From a virus (Duplodnaviria > Caudoviricetes): a stretch of DNA of 64,000 nt. Below the pieces are notes generated by a model. That model was not told where the DNA came from. It saw only the letters and a program-made list of their open reading frames with translations, and did no database searches. The DNA lies in IMG/VR virus record IMGVR_UViG_3300010163_000006, positions 91,672 to 155,671 of that record, one strand, 5' to 3'. Made by a program: the position numbers and the translations under genes. Positions 1,417 to 29,800 of this stretch are shown here, piece after piece. Within the stretch, counting starts at the first letter, position 1. Each line of letters opens with the position of its first letter.

Positions 1417-1451
1417 CAAAAAATAATCCCCCAAATATTTGGGGGATTATT
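1417..1451 (-). terminator. Intrinsic terminator closing pentamer array A
   Basis: Palindrome aataatcccccaaat/atttgggggattatt with a left-hand A-tract. Confidence 0.75.
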
Positions 1452-1456
1452 GTCTC

Positions 1457-1930
1457 TTCACCAAGCATCACAAGACTGAACCAAGCCTCACCATGACAGA
1501 ACTAAAATAAACTATACTTAGCTTCACCATCACTCTACATGACGTTGCCTCACCAGTACCAAACAACACAATACCTGACAATATCATACCATGACGATAC
1601 TTGGCTGAACCATCACGTTAATATACCCGACACCACTCAACTTTACCAATACACCACCCACTTCAATACACCTGACAACACTCTACCAATACATGACGGG
1701 ACTGAACGATGCCACACCAACACATTGCATCACCCCACGAAACATGACAAAGCCTTACATTCACTTAACTCTGCAACACTATGCGTAACCTTAACGTTAC
1801 TGTGCAACTCACAGCTATGCCTTTACTGAACATCAGGTCATGTAATACTATATACATACCATCACATGACCTGACTACACCACACTTTAATACGCCACAC
1901 TTCACTTTACCATGGCTGTGATATTTGTGG
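1457..1930 (-). repeat. Pentamer-periodic array A (NNNGY steps with NNNGGY punctuation), putative guide-RNA array
   Basis: Plus strand parses as gcatc acaag actga accaa gcctc accatg / acaga actaa aataa actat actta gcttc accatc ...; lies between the RAMP-like gene stop and a terminator. Confidence 0.85.
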
Positions 1931-1934
1931 CTGA

Positions 1935-2567
1935 TTAGTGTTCTGAAGCATTACCCCCGATTACATTTCCGTCGGCATCAAGCTCTTCCCAGACAAATTT
2001 ACCCTTTCCACTGTTGCGCCACTGACCCGTTCCGTGGTAGAATCCATAGTCCAACCATTCACGAACGAGTGTTTCATCTTCATCCACCATACACAGTACG
2101 GTGAATTCGTTAGTGGAGCCGACCGGCACGGTTTCTGAACATGCCAGTGAAACACGTTCACCCTGTGGTGTGTTGGCTCTTAACGGTCTCTGACACAACG
2201 TTATCTCACCATTAACGTTGATGACGGATTTGCGTTCCTTGATAAAGATCAGACCGTCTATCTGTTTCTTAAACGCTTTGATCTTTGATGAAGCGGTACC
2301 TTTAACCTTTTTGAGGAAACTACAGGTCTCCTTGAAGTAACCTCGCCACTGATAGTCGTAAATGATCAGATTTCCGTCATCGTCTCTCGGGAATACGGTT
2401 GTTCCCTTTTCAACAGTCGGATCAACACCGACAGATGCTACCTCATCATCGATTGTGGTTGCATCGGGTGACTTCGAAGCGATGTAGCTTCTGTAGATTT
2501 CCTGGTCATTGGTTGCTGTGCCAAGCAGCTCCTCGATAAATGTTACGCGTACTCTGATTTCTTTCAT
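1935..2567 (-). CDS. Stand-alone RAMP/Cas7-like RNA-binding protein
   Basis: N-terminal strand IRVRVTFIEELLG, YQWRGYFKE helix, SETVPVGS strand, and C-terminal glycine-rich loop GTGQWRNSGKGKF (GxGxxRxxGxGxF, RAMP signature); start ATG 2567 behind AAAGGAGGT. Confidence 0.75.
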   Translation of the reverse strand: MKEIRVRVTFIEELLGTATNDQEIYRSYIASKSPDATTIDDEVASVGVDPTVEKGTTVFPRDDDGNLIIYDYQWRGYFKETCSFLKKVKGTASSKIKAFKKQIDGLIFIKERKSVINVNGEITLCQRPLRANTPQGERVSLACSETVPVGSTNEFTVLCMVDEDETLVREWLDYGFYHGTGQWRNSGKGKFVWEELDADGNVIGGNASEH

Positions 2568-2670: not shown

Positions 2671-2691
2671 GTCCGGGGATAATCCCCGGAC
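2671..2691 (-). terminator. Hairpin terminator
   Basis: gtccggggat-a-atccccggac. Confidence 0.7.
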
Positions 2692-2706: not shown

Positions 2707-3093
2707 TTATGGAGCCGGATATATGACAAAAGTTTTCAGACCTTTGATCTTGAACCCGCCGTCTTCTGTCGGTTCTCCGAACACTCTTGGGACGGCAATC
2801 AATTTGGGATTGTTTGACACAAATTCCTTGATCATTTTGTCAGATTGGTCAAATTCAACATCTATCCACCCACCAACAAATCCCATATCATAACCAGTTA
2901 TCACTCCTATGATATCATTTATATCAACTCTCAAATGTAAAATATCTACTGTTTTACAGTCTGTTCCCTTCACAACCTTCATACCAACCAAACCATGTGT
3001 AGATATATGTTTGTATAAGTCTTTAAATGATAGACATTCGTTGATTCTGACGGGAATGGTTTTCCTGATCTTCTTAGGGATCCTGACTTTCAT
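2707..3093 (-). CDS. Hypothetical protein between the RAMP-like gene and array B
   Basis: ORF 2707..3114; likely start ATG 3093 behind GGAAAGGAG. Confidence 0.65.
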   Translation of the reverse strand: MKVRIPKKIRKTIPVRINECLSFKDLYKHISTHGLVGMKVVKGTDCKTVDILHLRVDINDIIGVITGYDMGFVGGWIDVEFDQSDKMIKEFVSNNPKLIAVPRVFGEPTEDGGFKIKGLKTFVIYPAP

Positions 3094-3117
3094 TAATTTA
3101 TCACTCCTTTCCATATA

Positions 3118-3157
3118 ATAAAAAATAACCCCCGTAAGGTGGGAGGAGGTTATTTTT
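3118..3157 (-). terminator. Imperfect terminator closing array B
   Basis: aaaaataacc...ggttattttt inverted repeat around a GC-rich core. Confidence 0.5.
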
Positions 3158-3171
3158 CTTTAAGATATGTC

Positions 3172-4700
3172 GTTACCATTACTCTACAAGACCCAACTTT
3201 GATGAACCATTACTGAACCAAACCGCGCTTTGCCTTACAACACTTGGCATCGCCGCACCGTAACACCGCTATACTGGGCTGAACTATGCCTTTACGCAAC
3301 AGCACTATTCGACGCTACACCATAACTTCACAATACCCACGCGGTACAATGCGTTACAGGACATAGCCTTTACTGGTACCATTCGACACCTTACCTGCAC
3401 ATGACATCGCCACCTATCACAACACAACACCAATACAGAACAATACCGAACGCCACACTACCTTTACGATACATACGAACACGAAGCTCAATATTACTAT
3501 ACTTAACATTACCCGTTACGTGACCATGCGGCACCTGACCTTACCAAAACATTACTCTACGCCTCCTGGCTTTACCCAAACATTACGCTCGCAGCATTAC
3601 TGCACCATCACAGCACCATACGTAAACTGACTATACATTACCGATACAATACGAATCAGTACGGAACATCACGGAACCCATTACGTAACGTAACGCCACT
3701 TGACCGAACTGCACCCTCACAAAACTATCCCATACTGTACCATTAATGTACACTGCGTGACTAAACACGACTCTACCTGTACTTTACTATGAGCAACGTA
3801 TCTCCGCTCCGCTTTACCTTTACTAAGCATTACCTGGTATTGCTTAACCTTGCCTATACGATACCAAGCGTGGCATTTCTTCACCGCACCGTTTACTCTA
3901 CATTACTCGACTTCACTCCAACATTACCCTCACATGGCATCATAAGACCACACTTTACCTTTACGACACCTCACAGAACAGGACCAAACCATGCCTGAAC
4001 ATTACCTTTAGATCACAATACGCGACGATACTTCACCTTACCATTACCAGAGAAAACGTCACCATACCGATACCGCAACCATGCTTCACCTTACTTAACC
4101 CTTACTTGGCTTGGCGGAACAAAACTATACTATACCGTTACATAATCATACCGCACCCGGCCTTACCCATAACATCACAAAACTTTTCTGTACACTTCCT
4201 TTGCGGAAACTATGCCCGACACAGCATCACGACACTATACCGGAACGCCACGTCACTCTACGGTACACCACCATGCTATACCAGCACAGTGCATTACTTG
4301 ACATTGCTTTACCTTACCAATGCTGTACATCACAATACCATTACGAAACAATACCAGACTGCAACTCACCGCGCATCACCTATGCTAAACATTACGTTCA
4401 AGACCCCGCTTTACTGAACCTTGACAAAACCAAACAGTGCCTCACCGAAGCATTACTTGACATTGCTTGACCATACTTCACATCACCTTTACTGAACGTT
4501 ATGAGACAAAGCGTCACCTCACAGCACCATTACTTGGCAAAACTTCACGTGACACGACGATACTTCACCTTACCATTACCCAACATGACAATATGACACC
4601 ATGCGTTGCCGTTAGCCATACATAACACAACATGCCCTCACAACGCAATACCTTTACAGAACATAAAAGCTCAGCACTACACTTCACCGATACGTCACAT
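3172..4700 (-). repeat. Pentamer-periodic array B (about 1.5 kb), putative guide-RNA array
   Basis: Minus strand 4577->4532 reads AATGGT AAGGT GAAGT ATCGT CGTGT CACGT GAAGT TTTGC CAAGT; the same register recurs throughout; no convincing protein-like ORF. Confidence 0.9.
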
Positions 4701-4701
4701 A

Positions 4702-6006
4702 TTATTGTTGAGATAAAATGTCATAATATCGAGAGACGTCAAATCCCAGTTTGTTTAGCTTGTCTATAAATTCCTTATAAGACTTCCGACCCAGATTTCG
4801 TATCTTCATTATATCTTCAGGAGCAGTAGATAATATATCACCAATTGTACGGATTCCTCCGCATTTCAGGGAATTGAAAGTCCTGACACTTAAGTCGATT
4901 AAATCTATATCCGTATCCTCTGTAAATTCAGGTATCTTCCCATCAACATCGAGAGAAATTTCTTGTGTTCGCAGTACCCCATACTTAAGAATCATCAACG
5001 CTCTTTTGTCCGCGATAATAGCGTTCGATATTTCTTCAACTGATTGTCTGGTATCAATACCCAAAATATGGATCAGAAATTCGACAGTCTCGACGTCACA
5101 AAGGTTGTCATCGAGATATCTCATGTTGTATATGTTTTCATACACACGTCTACCCAAGCGTGTAGAATTCTTTTCAACAAGATGCCGCAGCTTGTTTTTG
5201 TGTTCTCCATAAACGATAGTCCTTAGTGCTCGGGCTTCTATTTGTCTTATTCTATCCGGAGTAAGATTGTATTCATTTGCTATCTCTGTCAGAGTCATGT
5301 GATCAATAAACCTCTTGTCAAGTATATCAATATCTCTAATTTGTCTAATTGATCTTTGAATAAAGAGCTCGATATCTGTAGTATCTGTTCCGATAATTTC
5401 AAGATCATCTGAAAAGAAATCCATACCGTCTACTGCTGCAGCGATTAAGTTCCATGGATAGAGACTATATTGCACGGGGTATATGTTGGATATCATCTTT
5501 TCCATCCGTGTGAAATAAGGATTCTCTTTGTAATGGTAGATCTTTGCACAAGCGATTATGTTCGCAAGTTCACGCACGGTCTTGTAGATGTGGTTGTTAT
5601 TTATCACCATCTCAAGTAGGTCTGGTTCTAACCATAATCGTGAGATTGTGACGTCGGGAGAAAACTTCGATAAACGGATATCCTCAGTTTTCCAGAACTT
5701 TGATTTCAGCTTATCGGTAGGGATACTAACCCTTTGGGATACTAATGTCATTCCTGTATGTTCACTAATTGATTTCGGAGAAACTCCTAATATATTCCTA
5801 TAACCAAAAGCGATTAATGTGTCGTCACCGATGGTTGACAAAAGATCGTCAATCTTTTTCATGAGTTTATCCTCATTGATTTCTTCAATATCATTCAGAG
5901 ACAATCCCGGGAGAAATCCCTTCTCGATCAATCTCGTTATGATTGTTTTCACATCGACACCGGCTTCGAATACGTGGTTGTTAATAACTAATTCGCTAAA
6001 CTTCAT
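4702..6006 (-). CDS. Protein with sigma-70 region-4 HTH and C-terminal RNA polymerase alpha-CTD domain
   Basis: MTLTEIANEYNLTPDRIRQIEARALRTI (sigma 4.2) and IDLIDLSVRTFNSLKCGGIRTIGDIL...IRNLGRKSYKEF (alpha-CTD); GGAAGGAG RBS. Confidence 0.8.
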   Translation of the reverse strand: MKFSELVINNHVFEAGVDVKTIITRLIEKGFLPGLSLNDIEEINEDKLMKKIDDLLSTIGDDTLIAFGYRNILGVSPKSISEHTGMTLVSQRVSIPTDKLKSKFWKTEDIRLSKFSPDVTISRLWLEPDLLEMVINNNHIYKTVRELANIIACAKIYHYKENPYFTRMEKMISNIYPVQYSLYPWNLIAAAVDGMDFFSDDLEIIGTDTTDIELFIQRSIRQIRDIDILDKRFIDHMTLTEIANEYNLTPDRIRQIEARALRTIVYGEHKNKLRHLVEKNSTRLGRRVYENIYNMRYLDDNLCDVETVEFLIHILGIDTRQSVEEISNAIIADKRALMILKYGVLRTQEISLDVDGKIPEFTEDTDIDLIDLSVRTFNSLKCGGIRTIGDILSTAPEDIMKIRNLGRKSYKEFIDKLNKLGFDVSRYYDILSQQ

Positions 6007-6097
6007 AACTTTCTCCTTCCGAACCTATCACAGGTTCTGCTTATTAATTATTTTAAGTATGAATAATATGAAAGCAACCACTTTCTTCTTATTCGCA

Positions 6098-6598: not shown

Positions 6599-6722
6599 GT
6601 GGATTAGATGTGTATTTTTAATGGACCGTTATATTCCACATTACCTCCTCCGTTGATACAGAGCTGCAGTGTGTCAACTTCTGGTGTTCTCGGATTTTAA
6701 ACTAATGATACACATAATCCAC
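6599..6722 (-). ncRNA. Unknown structured RNA, copy 1
   Basis: Terminal stem, 9-bp/9-nt hairpin at 6652-6678, sequence blocks shared with 7201-7307. Confidence 0.6.
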
Positions 6723-6724
6723 TT

Positions 6725-6802
6725 TGGTGGGATATGCTGGATTCGAACCAGCGTCATAACGCCGTGCACAACGTATACTTTTCCCCGCTAAAATAATATC
6801 CC
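6725..6802 (-). pseudogene. Degenerate tRNA (UGC/Ala-like loop)
   Basis: GGGATAT/ATATCCC-ACCA and GCTGG-TTCGAAT-CCAGC intact; anticodon loop irregular (GTGCAC); no G3:U70. Confidence 0.55.
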
Positions 6803-6805
6803 ATT

Positions 6806-6881
6806 TGGTGGATGGTGATGGAGTTGAACCACTATTCTCATTATCGTCGTGATAATGCACTTTCCTTAAGCTACATGCGTC
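6806..6881 (-). pseudogene. Highly degenerate tRNA-like element
   Basis: CCA end, GTGG-TTCAACT-CCAT T-arm-like hairpin, CATTATC/GATAATG hairpin; acceptor stem poorly paired. Confidence 0.4.
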
Positions 6882-7200
6882 ATTTTATATTTATACGTCT
6901 GCCAAGGGATCTACATACGGTGTACATGGAAATAGATCAAATATCCCTTTGTTCCAGTCATCAAACAGATCGTCTTTACTGATTGTCGGATTGCCTTCCC
7001 TTGCCATGATTGTTGAAAGAGAGCAATTGGTACACTATACGCATCCTATTACATATTTCTTATCTCCTTTTGACACTTCGCGTGTTACATATTTTACTTT
7101 ATCGGCAGAATTACACCGAGGACATGGATTGATATTCATGTATGCCATCCTTTACCAAGACATCTTTATGTAGTATGAATTTAAAAATATATAATAAACA

Positions 7201-7307
7201 AAATGTGTATCGGGGCTCGGGAAGCGACCCCTCCTCCTCACTCAATGCATAGCCATGGTACATTGAGGTCTGGTGTTCTCATTAACTTTAAACTATTAAC
7301 ACATTTC
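7201..7307 (-). ncRNA. Unknown structured RNA, copy 2
   Basis: Terminal stem aaatgtgt/acacattt, 9-bp/9-nt hairpin at 7241-7267, blocks shared with copy 1. Confidence 0.6.
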
Positions 7308-7387
7308 ATTTATTATTGTAATCGCCAACCCAGACGATCACCACATTCGCCACACCTGATGGTCTCCCTATCGAATGCATTCCTCGT

Positions 7388-8753: not shown

Positions 8754-10148
8754 TTAAGAAGACATAAGTCCAAGACAGATGGTCGACCAATCCATCAGAG
8801 GTAATTCGATCTTTTCGGTAACGTAGTTAGTTACACAAGAGAAGTGGAACTTTTCGAAATGCTGAACGATTCCATCTTCTTTACATCCAAGGAATAAAGT
8901 ATTCAGTTGGTCTCCATCAAAGTCCGCATTAAAACCGGGAAGTGGTTCTGGAGGTAAACTGATCGTATCATCATTTACCTTGAAACGACGTATCTTTGCA
9001 ATCTCAATAGAAGCAAAGTTGTTTGTCGGTTCTCTAAGGATCATGATCCATTGTTCTTTGTCGAGTATCTCTTGAAGGATATCGACTACCTCGGGATGAA
9101 TCTTATAATCTCTGACATACAGATATGCCTGTTCAAGAGTGAAGTTATATCTGACAGATAAGATGTGTGTTATCTTGTACTGGAATGCGGTAATACACAT
9201 TGGCAATGGCAGATCAACTTCATCGACGTTCAATGATATATCGAGGGTGATTACCGCACGACCAGAGAATGAAAACGTACCACCAACAATCTCTGATCTT
9301 ACGAAACCATCCTTCTTTGAAACCTCATTCGTTATCAGATGCTCAGCAGCTTCAACCCAATAATTCTGAATAAAGTTCAATGCCTGAATCGTTTCGATTG
9401 GTAAAGCCATGTCTTTCAACTTGCATTGAATCGAAACGATTTGTGAAAACCATTTATTGATCTTCGGGTAGAACATCGTCTCTGATGTCTTAGATACAGG
9501 ACGGAATGCTGTTGAGTAGATCGGGATCTTCGAAGTGAACACAGCTTCTTTCTCTTGGATCAATGTCGCAAGTTCCTCTGTTGATTTACCACAAGCGGTC
9601 AATACCTCTTCGAATCTTTGGTAAAATACATCGTGTCCAAGACCTTCGTAAATCTGTTTCGACTTGGGTATTTTCTTCCTGATATATGCGATGTCGTTTT
9701 GTGCAATACGACCTGTTTTTCGGTTCTTTTTGTTCTCTGCAAAGTTCGTATCATTCTCATTATAAGGAACAGAGAAATCGGCCTTATAGTCTCCGAGAAT
9801 ATATTTCAACATATTTACAGACAATACTCTCTTGAGCATTGAATAATAGATTGGTGATATAACTTTGTGTGGAGATATATCAACCCATCCAGTATATTTA
9901 AAGTTCAATGAGCGAAGAGTGATCTCAGAGTTACAACGTGGGCATACTCGGCCAATGATATCTTGACCGATGAATGCACCACAGTCGCATCTGTACTCAA
10001 CGTCCATGAACTTGGAAGAATTGATCAGTTGATCAACATTTACTGGAGCATACATATCTTCCTCTTCGTTGATTAAAAACCCATTGTGGGTAATCATGTC
10101 GATGATATACTCGTTCTCCAGATTTATTCTTTCAAGTGTGACGCCCAT
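8754..10148 (-). CDS. Phage multisubunit RNA polymerase beta' N-terminal subunit (catalytic)
   Basis: Zn-binding CDCG...CPRC, FSGRAVI, REP and catalytic FNADFDGDQL motifs. Confidence 0.9.
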   Translation of the reverse strand: MGVTLERINLENEYIIDMITHNGFLINEEEDMYAPVNVDQLINSSKFMDVEYRCDCGAFIGQDIIGRVCPRCNSEITLRSLNFKYTGWVDISPHKVISPIYYSMLKRVLSVNMLKYILGDYKADFSVPYNENDTNFAENKKNRKTGRIAQNDIAYIRKKIPKSKQIYEGLGHDVFYQRFEEVLTACGKSTEELATLIQEKEAVFTSKIPIYSTAFRPVSKTSETMFYPKINKWFSQIVSIQCKLKDMALPIETIQALNFIQNYWVEAAEHLITNEVSKKDGFVRSEIVGGTFSFSGRAVITLDISLNVDEVDLPLPMCITAFQYKITHILSVRYNFTLEQAYLYVRDYKIHPEVVDILQEILDKEQWIMILREPTNNFASIEIAKIRRFKVNDDTISLPPEPLPGFNADFDGDQLNTLFLGCKEDGIVQHFEKFHFSCVTNYVTEKIELPLMDWSTICLGLMSS

Positions 10149-26814: not shown

Positions 26815-29800
26815 GTGATTATGAATTACAATAAATGGTTCTATAATCAACATAAGTATCTGAAAAACATCCGCGATAACTCTGAGGGTTTTAATGATAC
26901 TAAGTGGGTTACTATCAACAAGCGTTACCAAATACTTGACGATATGAAATCCGAATTGCTTTCACAAGGACTATTGGTTCATGGTAACAATACTGGATTT
27001 GATAAACTTATTGATTTGATGGGTAGATCTAATTATACATTCGAAGATATCAATGATTCTTTAATTGATACATACAGGGTTTCATTGCATTTTGCAATGA
27101 GTAGAAACCTTGTTAATACTCATGCGGTTATGTTTCATTGTACCAATATGGATACCAAGAATGTTACTGCGGAGAAGTTCACTCATTACAGAATAATTGA
27201 TGCGCCTTTTAATCAATTACACTTTGGACACCGTGATGAGTTCATACGTCAAAAGCTCCAGGAAATGCATAATATCAGTAATGGTAATTATGTTGATATG
27301 CCCCGATTTAATTCCACTCAATTCACCAAGATCCTTGATTTCTCAATCATATGCACAGTCAATGGTTATTTTTGTAACGATTGTAAAGTTGCTATTGATG
27401 ATAAAGGTTTTAAATTCAAAGTAGGATGGCCTTATGCTTCGGATGTTGATTTCATTGTATACAAATTGGATCATGGTAGAATGATTTCCAATAACATATC
27501 ACCAGATTATGTTAAGAAGGGATTGATTCCTTATGACGTACTTGGTGGTGTTGGTAAAGAGATGCTCGGATTAAAATGCATCATAAATGTGTTTGATCCT
27601 TTGTTTATCAAGACAACTTCATCTGTTCCTAACTTCGGTATATTCACCGAAAAGGGATTGGAGATAAGGAACTTACAAAGAGCCACATCTGATATGATTG
27701 ATAGATTGTCGTCATCAAATGTGACCGTTGATGTATATGCCTTGAAATTCTTTCATGAAATACCCAACTTGTATCCCGCTATCAATTATTACGATATAAT
27801 GGATACAAGGAATGTGTATGACGAAAAGAGCGAAAGCATTAAAACAACCGAGGGACATAACGTTGTCGCAACACCATCGAAGAACATAAACAAACTTGAA
27901 GTATGTACACCACCGATATGTCTTGATCGAGATGTATCATATTCATTTGATATCATCACAAGGTGTTTATCCATGTATGATGACATGATGTCATATGAAA
28001 GTGATTTAATCCGTGTTGGACAAGAATTGCTATATGGCAACCAAGATTCCTTCATGGATACATTCAAACCTATATTGCAGAAAATCTATTCTGGATTGTT
28101 GTCAATGTATAAGATCTATGAACAAGGAAGCATCATAACTTCATTGATTGAACCAGAACAACTTGGGCTGTTCTCCGACCTTTTGTCAAAAGTCCATAAG
28201 ATTTCAAACATGACAGACTTCCGTCATTCTCAGAATTATTCCTTCGATGAATTATACGGAGAAAATTATAGAAACACGGTTAAGACTATAACAGACCCAT
28301 TCAGGAATACAGCATTACTACCATTCGCATGCATGAAATCAATCAAGAACAATTTCTTTGTTGATAACAACACAACTCGATTCAATCGACCAATATCGGA
28401 GCAGTGTTTCATTGCACTCCGATACCATACAAATGATGGTTGTTGGTTGTTTGATTATCCGGACATCAAACATTTCCATGGGATCGGAAACACATTCTAT
28501 GTCGATTCGAATCTCAAGGGTGATGAGATATTCAAGTTCTTTGTTCTTTACAGTGATACCGAAGCTCCTGATGAAAAGGATATTGAACATATGGATCTTA
28601 ATACCGTATTGGATTTTGATTTGTTTTCTAAGGAAATAGAGAAACATATCGGGATGATTCGTTACTGGGATGCGGAATGTCGGTTGATGAAGTTATCAAA
28701 AATCATGTATAAGAAATACAATGATGAGACATGTGTTCAAGTATTATCAAAGATTCTTAAACGGAAAATATCCGGAGATAACATTCTCAAATTATATCCT
28801 TCTGATATAAACTATGAAGAATCAAATGTCTCTTCAGATAGTTGGGAATCTTATGATGAAAACACTGAACGAGGTCCTTTCTCAATAAATTTCCTGTTTT
28901 ATACCCTCTCTTTATTGAATAATAATGAGGATAAACTCCAATCGTATTTCTATAGATATCTTACTCATAATAAGTATCATAATAGATATACTGATATTGA
29001 TATCTCGTCCATCATTGACAATGAGAGATATCCCATCAGTTATTCTCAATACACAATATCTCCATCAAGAATCCCCGACAGTTGTGCGAAACCGGATGTA
29101 AAGATATTCGCATATTATGGATTACCATTGATATTGGATTCAAAAGGAAGTAATCTGTATGAACCGTACCGATATGTCTTGAACGTTTATGATCCAGATA
29201 CTAAGTATCCCATGATATCCGAAAACGATATTGATGGGTCTTTCTATGTTCAATATGACAATATCACAGATTATGCTGGACGGGTTGTTTCTTATCATAA
29301 CAATATTCAAATCGGACATCTGATGACATTATACCTGACAGATCTTTACAACTACATTTCTGAATTACAGACAAATTACAAAACAACATTCAACCAGTCA
29401 ACCGTGATTGAGTCTGCTATAAACACAATGAACGAACGAATTTCAACCATCAGAACACATATACTTGATAACGGACTTGATGATATTGATGGGGTTTCAT
29501 CTTTTGGTAATGCTGTTGATATCGTTATCAATGATAATGAATTTATTCGTAAATTGAATGAAATGAAATCATTGATTGATTCAATCGATGTAATCAGGTA
29601 TAACAATACAAATTCATCAATTCGCGTGTTCATAAATACGCATGTACTTGGTACGTTAAAACGTGCGTACGTTAATTTTGGTTTCAATAACAATATTAAC
29701 AAACGTGCACGTATGCTGTACATACACCTGAAGAAGATCAATGAACCAATGAATGCATACACATTCAAGAAATGGTTAACTGATATAGATCTTCATACAT

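Follow-up and report, generated by a model that had tools for sequence, protein, structure and literature searches.

Between two minus-strand genes of a phage genome, the window (the whole stretch of 64,000 nucleotides analysed here) contains a tract at 3172–4700, C/A-rich on its plus strand, that keeps a five-nucleotide register and slips from it by one base at recurring hexamers. What does this tract encode, and what are the slips for? The original prediction was that the hexamers cut the tract into guide-sized units and play the part of CRISPR repeats. The reading favoured here, with a probability of about 0.7, is that this tract and a second one nearby are vrRNA arrays of a phage VIPR system, that the gene between them encodes its Vipr protein, and that the 6-nt steps punctuate the guides.

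VIPR is a CRISPR-related, RNA-guided silencer of DNA described in 2026 preprints (bioRxiv 10.64898/2026.04.26.720920), and the following holds as far as the accessible parts of their text go. The system consists of a lone RAMP protein, Vipr, and of vrRNAs made of pentanucleotide repeats, found mostly in phages (10.64898/2026.04.26.720920). Type II vrRNAs carry 9–16 YNNGG repeats and a structured tail each (10.64898/2026.04.26.720920). One protomer sits on each repeat and buries GGY; the NN bases pair with DNA, passing over every third base of the target, and rival mobile elements are silenced (10.64898/2026.04.26.720920, 10.64898/2026.04.26.720927). In SUSP1 Vipr, H17 and D177 read the first G, W178 the second G and R179 the Y (10.64898/2026.04.26.720927). 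[quoted passage not shown]

Two arrays around a lone RAMP gene

The plus-strand dinucleotide AC, which is GT on the minus strand, recurs at a lag of 5 nt at 3.1 times expectation, with echoes of 2.5 at lag 10 and 2.0 at lag 15 and a leak into lag 11. A lag-5 scan of the 64-kb window and of the whole 155,671-bp genome, whose contig ends overlap by 70 bp and which is classed with direct terminal repeats, finds two tracts only, at about 1440–1925 and 3172–4700. They are called arrays A and B here (Table 1). Array A begins directly after the vipr stop codon and array B 1 nt past the stop codon of the gene upstream of it. The vipr gene lies between the two and is the sole copy in the genome. Each tract thus has a stop codon on one side and a hairpin with a T-run on the other, and the flanking genes of both are all on the minus strand, which is why the tracts are read as minus-strand RNA. 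Array A would extend the vipr transcript at its 3' end and array B that of the sigma-like gene, and both would stop at intrinsic terminators. The sigma-like gene probably supplies the array B transcript, with B as its 3' untranslated region.

Table 1. Features of the locus and the SUSP1 gene used for comparison (window positions unless an accession is given).
Feature	Position	Strand	Description
Putative vrRNA array A	1452..1934	-	about 93 units; 12 hexamer-headed modules
Intrinsic terminator closing array A	1422..1451	-	13-bp stem, then T-run
vipr (candidate)	1935..2567	-	210-aa lone Cas7/Csm3-like RAMP; G-loop GTGQWRNSGKG
Terminator-like hairpin and T-run, between the 135-aa ORF and vipr	2671..2691	-	
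135-aa ORF between array B and vipr	2707..3114	-	not a recognisable vap
Intrinsic terminator closing array B	3120..3146	-	stem 3146-3129, then T-run
Putative vrRNA array B	3172..4701	-	about 297 NNNGY units; GG-containing 6/7-mers give about 46 modules
Upstream gene	4702..6006	-	434 aa; sigma-70 region 4 (PF04545, 2e-8) and RNA polymerase alpha C-terminal domain (PF03118, 4e-17)
SUSP1 vipr	KT454805.2 28474-29061	-	type II VIPR, 195 aa

Searches of the arrays for other elements were negative. No tails, ribozymes, internal promoters or terminators were found between modules, TRF and a repeat finder detect no CRISPR-like repeats in the window, and Rfam at a permissive threshold returns no array match, just tRNAs and two sub-threshold chance matches at the terminator. 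Two partial resemblances occur within array B. The modules at 4021–4047 and 4555–4581 share AATGGT and the first three to four units before they diverge, a partial duplication, and those at 4292–4320 and 4450–4478 share a four-unit block (AATGT CAAGT AATGC plus flank) at different offsets from the hexamer.

The neighbouring genes offer little that is familiar from CRISPR loci. Cas models run against them give no match, and the sole Cas-related gene is the one with the Cas7-like fold; no ToxN-like gene was found beside the arrays. The 135-aa ORF has no match in Pfam, PHROG or PADLOC and no homologue in the 84 related vipr loci; its Atlas model superposes on part of the phage prohead proteases S77/S80 (TM 0.63–0.66 by query). 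The fusion of sigma-70 region 4 with an alpha C-terminal domain in the upstream gene is unusual, and the same phage encodes a piece of a split multisubunit RNA polymerase (8754–10148, phrog_2987). Farther upstream, ARAGORN calls a minus-strand tRNA at 6725–6802 that it leaves unassigned, with a four-base anticodon (tgca), an enlarged loop and an Rfam tRNA score of 43.6 bits; it lies within a cluster of five phage tRNAs (Gln, Glu, Cys, Leu).

Punctuation of the arrays

Segmentation of both arrays used a Viterbi-trained unit model on the minus strand. Array B resolves into 244 units of 5 nt, 45 of 6, 5 of 7 and 3 of 4, and array A is dominated by 76 units of 5 nt and 15 of 6. The unit is NNNGY: its fourth position is G in 93% of cases, and its fifth is T in 78% and C in 18% (Y 96%). 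Steps of 6 nt make up about 15% of all steps in the two arrays. The parse offered with the original prediction as an example, running from AATGGT GCTGT to AATGC, was reproduced exactly.

Base identity, even spacing and sequence context together show that the hexamers are not random slips. A G stands directly before GY in 52 of the 57 canonical hexamers of the window but in 58 of 280 pentamers (Fisher p = 2.1e-24), and the extra base of the 6-nt step is G in 91–95% of cases. When random single-base insertions were simulated and segmented in the same way, NNNGGY appeared in just 23% of the called hexamers (maximum 40%). The recurring NNNGGY slips on which the original prediction was built are therefore a property of the arrays, as is their regular placement. 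Gaps between GGY hexamers are mostly 6–8 units, that is 31, 36 or 41 nt, and some are of double length (14–16 units). Their coefficient of variation (B 0.43, A 0.35) lies below the 0.83–0.89 obtained for an equal number of randomly placed hexamers; in permutation such spacing arose in 0 of 5000 trials for B and with P = 0.0016 for A.

The motif is also asymmetric. Over 85 hexamers from four arrays, RAWGGY is followed by a biased unit, RNRGY, and the units upstream of the hexamers resemble interior units. The three N positions of the hexamer and the unit after it are constrained, and they behave as a handle rather than as guide information.

Array B contains 41 strict GGY hexamers, or 46 boundaries once GG-containing 7-mers are added, and array A contains 12, close to the forty or so and the dozen that had been anticipated. 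The modules they bound span 26–46 nt, with modes at 31, 36 and 41 nt and a median of six free pentamers each, and fall inside the range of roughly 26–50 nt first read from the parsed stretches. On this count B would hold about 46 guides and A about 12, each typically of five to seven free pentamers.

The putative Vipr protein and the SUSP1 parallel

The product of the gene between the arrays has no match in Pfam, PHROG or PADLOC. It belongs to a family of 5,675 clusters at 90% identity (1,680 representatives at 50% identity), and searching the PDB with the family profile finds Cas7 of type VII CRISPR (E 6e-5). Its AlphaFold model has a pLDDT of 92, and the best Foldseek matches of that model are Csm3 and type VII Cas7 (prob 1.0, TM 0.5–0.58). 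The hhalign alignment of the family profile with SUSP1 Vipr (prob 78%, E 1.8e-5) extends over 169 columns, approximately the full length, and has the G-loop in register (GxG[D/Q]WR; GVGDWR in SUSP1 pairs with GTGQWR in the window). A plain HMM search of the SUSP1 genome with the family HMM finds nothing, so the homology is remote and visible at the profile level only. In the same alignment the W178 and R179 of SUSP1 are kept as W183 and R184, whereas H17 and D177, the residues that contact the first G, are aligned with T17 and Q182. This substitution may correspond to the absence of a fixed first G in the repeat.

The SUSP1 locus (KT454805.2) could itself be found from sequence, as GGT-NN arrays that flank genes of 195 and 146 aa at 27.5–29.5 kb. 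In all four of its vrRNAs, which the preprint delimits by RNA sequencing, a single 6-nt step (ggtNN-G-ggt; ggtGT-G-ggt or ggtAT-G-ggt) ends the repeat tract just before the pseudoknot tail, and in two of the four, within 27500–29511, a 7-nt step follows the 6-nt one. The accessible preprint text has no mention of this end step. In the window and in SUSP1 alike, the hexamer amounts to a pentamer with one more G in its G-run.

Homologous loci and module turnover

The nearest relatives of the window's Vipr, 80% and 71% identical, are on contigs of 243 kb and 111 kb. In both, a GT-pentamer array starts at the vipr stop codon, ends at a terminator and is followed by a tRNA, and hexamers and spacing are alike. 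More widely, a G-periodic array of 25 units or more adjoins vipr in 83 of 84 homologue loci (58 downstream, 45 upstream), compared with 3 for a control on the reverse strand and 10 for a control inside the gene. The array strand is always the vipr coding strand, and across the 84 related loci no conserved partner gene was found near vipr.

Repeat flavours differ by clade, with NNNGT in the window, NNNG[C/A/T] in gut phages and NNNNG in another group, and the GG step is present throughout. In the homologue arrays 6-nt steps amount to 17–18%, and they end in GG in 75% of cases as against 22% of pentamers and 6–8% in controls. Substitutions between relatives number 21, 30 and 27 at the three N positions, which differ to a similar extent, and 6 at the G. 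A comparison of the whole locus with 50,697 phage records at the DNA level gave no match. The conservation of the arrays is one of grammar only, without conservation of sequence.

Several relatives add detail of their own. In the L008–L023 group, whose vipr is 62% identical to that of the window, the array lies upstream of vipr (L012:4700–4995) and has one fixed G per 5 nt (NNNNG), with NNNNGG hexamers such as CTATGG, AGATGG and ATATGG; downstream of vipr, L012 has 'GACAAGCC/GCAAGCC' direct repeats (5720–6010) instead of an array. In a GC-rich relative (L001:3755–6633) vipr comes after genes for a YqaJ-like exonuclease and a DUF932 protein, a recombination-type neighbourhood, and a 0.7-kb NNNGC array lies downstream of vipr (6640–7330). 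The 111-kb relative (L007:5759–7438) encodes a TROVE (Ro60-like) domain protein, by a weak Pfam match, about 2.5 kb upstream of vipr.

The comparison of related phages that the original prediction called for, a search for the gain or loss of whole units, was made among ten gut-phage arrays downstream of vipr (L028, L029, L035, L038, L048, L051, L053, L060, L061 and L063). Cut at the hexamers, these arrays are strings of shared and unique modules, as in comparisons of CRISPR spacers. Some modules are inserted or replaced from hexamer to hexamer, among them a four-module insertion and a replaced block in L060. About 15 of 19 length-changing breakpoints coincide with a hexamer or the unit that follows it, against an expectation of about one third, by a hand count of events that are not all independent. 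The arrays are polar as well: the vipr-distal modules, by the terminator, are common to nearly all, and the vipr-proximal ones are replaced or inserted. This polarity recalls turnover at the leader end of CRISPR arrays; we know of no adaptation genes for arrays of this kind. The L003–L006 arrays are identical, so that set yields no strain indels.

Targets and the reading of the variable bases

If the modules are guides, their three variable bases per unit, n1, n2 and n3, might be matched to targets. Under seven pairing and skip rules, the modules matched 1 Mb of DNA from this phage and related loci no more often than shuffled modules did. In exact IMG/VR scans, two modules read as contiguous triplets had no matches, and one module read as n1n2x had 48, about the chance number, scattered over unrelated contigs.

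The composition of n1, n2 and n3 resembles that of codon positions 1, 2 and 3 in this phage, and stop triplets in the window arrays, counted without conditioning, are fewer than expected (7 vs 15.4, P = 0.0125), with no depletion in L003 or L007. A codon reading was rejected, as the depletion is not significant given n1n2 (B: 4 vs 7.7, P = 0.06; none elsewhere).

How the guides may be delimited

By analogy with the cryo-EM structure of SUSP1, one Vipr protomer would occupy each 5-nt unit, with the constant G-Y buried and the variable bases presented. The Vipr filament would then, as in SUSP1, recognise the double-stranded DNA of rival mobile elements by a gapped code and silence it. Within such an array, the RAWGGY step and the RNRGY unit would end one guide and start the next through the +1 shift in register. 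That the hexamers delimit guides in this way is supported indirectly, by the 6-nt step at the end of the SUSP1 tracts, by the edges of module turnover and by the handle-like constraint, and also by the even spacing and by GG punctuation conserved across the protein family. The predicted likeness to CRISPR repeats accordingly divides in two. As unit boundaries the hexamers hold up on motif, spacing, family conservation, module edges and the SUSP1 parallel; CRISPR repeats they are not, being 6 nt long, or 11 with the next unit, and having neither a hairpin nor a Cas6.

A boundary may be cut or simply abutted. In the first case the hexamers would be true processing sites, and a nuclease, whether Vipr, a host RNase or another partner, would cleave the RNA at GG or next to it, freeing the guides as Cas6 does. 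For staggered arrays, the legend of fig. S18 in the preprint refers to 'boundaries of individual processed vrRNAs' (10.64898/2026.04.26.720920), and the RAW triplet ahead of GG, being rich in A, might be a site for an RNase that acts on single strands. Processing is a real prospect, if one that falls short of even. Against it, no nuclease gene linked to vipr was found in the clade, and cutting and abutting filaments look the same in sequence. The small-RNA sequencing in the accessible preprint text, moreover, confirmed only the ribozyme-interspersed and single-vrRNA layouts (10.64898/2026.04.26.720920).

The second case, delimitation by register, is a speculative proposal that we hold to be rather unlikely in its full form. 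A Vipr filament would start or stop at RAWGGY, and through the +1 shift each filament would preclude its neighbours, such that one unprocessed transcript could serve as dozens of independent guides of five to seven protomers. With the first-G pocket lost, three bases per protomer, as contiguous triplets, may be read. If register delimits the guides, they would be set apart without repeats, tails, ribozymes or a processing nuclease; if contiguous triplets are read, the code would depart from the published one of two bases and a skip.

The arrays may also belong to VIPR and yet have no boundaries at the hexamers. They would form one continuous filament in which the extra base relieves helical strain or keeps phase at a mean of 5.18 nt, and guides would be defined otherwise or the RNA would be a long multi-site scaffold. 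Several observations would sit well with this: the modules are separated by none of the elements searched for above, the mean unit length is strikingly constant at 5.12–5.18 nt in four arrays, some gaps are of double length, and a blind module-offset test does not discriminate, giving 51–56 clusters at every offset, hexamer-phased or shifted. A pure spacer, however, needs neither a specific RAWGG motif with a biased following unit nor an extra base that is so regularly G. In SUSP1 each defined guide tract finishes precisely with the +1 step, and related arrays gain, lose and swap blocks from hexamer to hexamer. A continuous filament is for these reasons improbable.

That the tracts are not guides at all, and act as a protein sponge or decoy RNA or as a structural element in DNA for a DNA-binding protein, is very improbable: two units do span about 10.35 bp, near the helical repeat of B-DNA, the searches above found no target (seven rules over 1 Mb and three IMG/VR scans), and array A RNA is no more structured than shuffled sequence (z = -1.7), but the arrays lie between stop codon and terminator with a strict strand asymmetry that matches vipr, their partner has a Cas7-type RNA-binding fold and a homologue that experiments show to be guided by such RNA, and relatives differ greatly at the three N positions around a fixed G.

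Other candidates were set aside. The 31–41 nt modules all differ and no ToxN-like gene is adjacent, which rules against the 36-nt repeats of a ToxI-like, type III toxin-antitoxin system. The RAMP fold and the VIPR literature displace the remaining ideas: a TRAP- or Hfq-like sponge, a Rho-utilisation tract on the plus strand, a DNA helical-phase element and a potexvirus-like encapsidation signal.

Significance

The system is not new: the accessible text of the VIPR preprints from April 2026 already names YNNNG repeats and 'staggered' arrays. In that text VIPR experiments have so far rested on type II, with tailed GGY/NN guides. The present locus is one of the largest tail-less examples, with about 58 guides in 2 kb of a 155-kb phage that has its own RNA polymerase. 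What it adds is a grammar, RAWGGY and RNRGY every 6–8 units, together with a family-wide GG step, module turnover and the T17/Q182 substitutions. Taken with the 84 related loci, it indicates that the GG step is common to the family, that arrays evolve by module turnover, and that the loss of the first-G contacts from the protein matches that of the first G from the repeats. From it follow testable rules by which guides could be called in arrays of this type, and it raises the question of how short guides with 15–21 variable bases achieve specificity.

Comparison with known systems

Csm3 of type III-A and Cas7 of type VII, the best structural matches of the Vipr model, have RAMP folds that polymerise along a guide RNA, with a thumb that kinks the RNA periodically. 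The resemblance to class 1 CRISPR-Cas ends there. The window has no CRISPR repeats or spacers and no Cas5, Cas6, Cas10 or Cas1-Cas2, its system is phage-borne, the period is 5 nt instead of 6, and the guide information is non-contiguous. CRISPR-Cas itself is ruled out: the sole recurring element is a motif of 6, or at most 11, nt, and no cas gene accompanies it other than the Cas7-like fold.

With the type II VIPR of SUSP1 the window shares a homologous protein of about 200 aa with GxGxWR, a 5-nt repeat, arrays on both sides of vipr, and the single 6-nt step, which in SUSP1 stands at the end of each repeat tract. The differences lie in the guides. SUSP1 repeats are GGY/NN with two variable bases, and those of the window are GY/NNN; the canonical GGY/NN (YNNGG) form is not what the arrays contain, as a G precedes G-Y in 21–22% of pentamers. 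SUSP1 vrRNAs are separate, about 100 nt long, with 9–16 repeats and a conserved pseudoknot tail, whereas the modules of the window number 4–8 repeats, lack a tail and follow one another head to tail. SUSP1 also has vap1, and the window has no recognisable vap. A structured 3' tail of the type II kind would appear as an invariant segment between modules; none is present, and only the hexamer and the biased next unit recur, which fits the tail-less 'staggered' layout and not type II.

It is this staggered YNNNG form of VIPR that the window most resembles. As far as the available text goes, at the level of a legend, the published description is without the RAWGGY and RNRGY grammar, the size of about 58 modules in 2 kb and the cassette-like turnover. 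The locus has a RAMP homologous to published Vipr by fold and by a remote profile alignment, an adjacent pentanucleotide array on the vipr strand with fixed G/Y and hypervariable N, and a viral genome without a CRISPR array or cas operon at the locus. In both, a lone phage RAMP stands beside long intergenic pentanucleotide tracts with consecutive, tail-less guides, and only G and Y are fixed, NNNGY being YNNNG in another frame. The arrays of the window are thus a probable instance of the preprint's 'staggered', tail-less layout.
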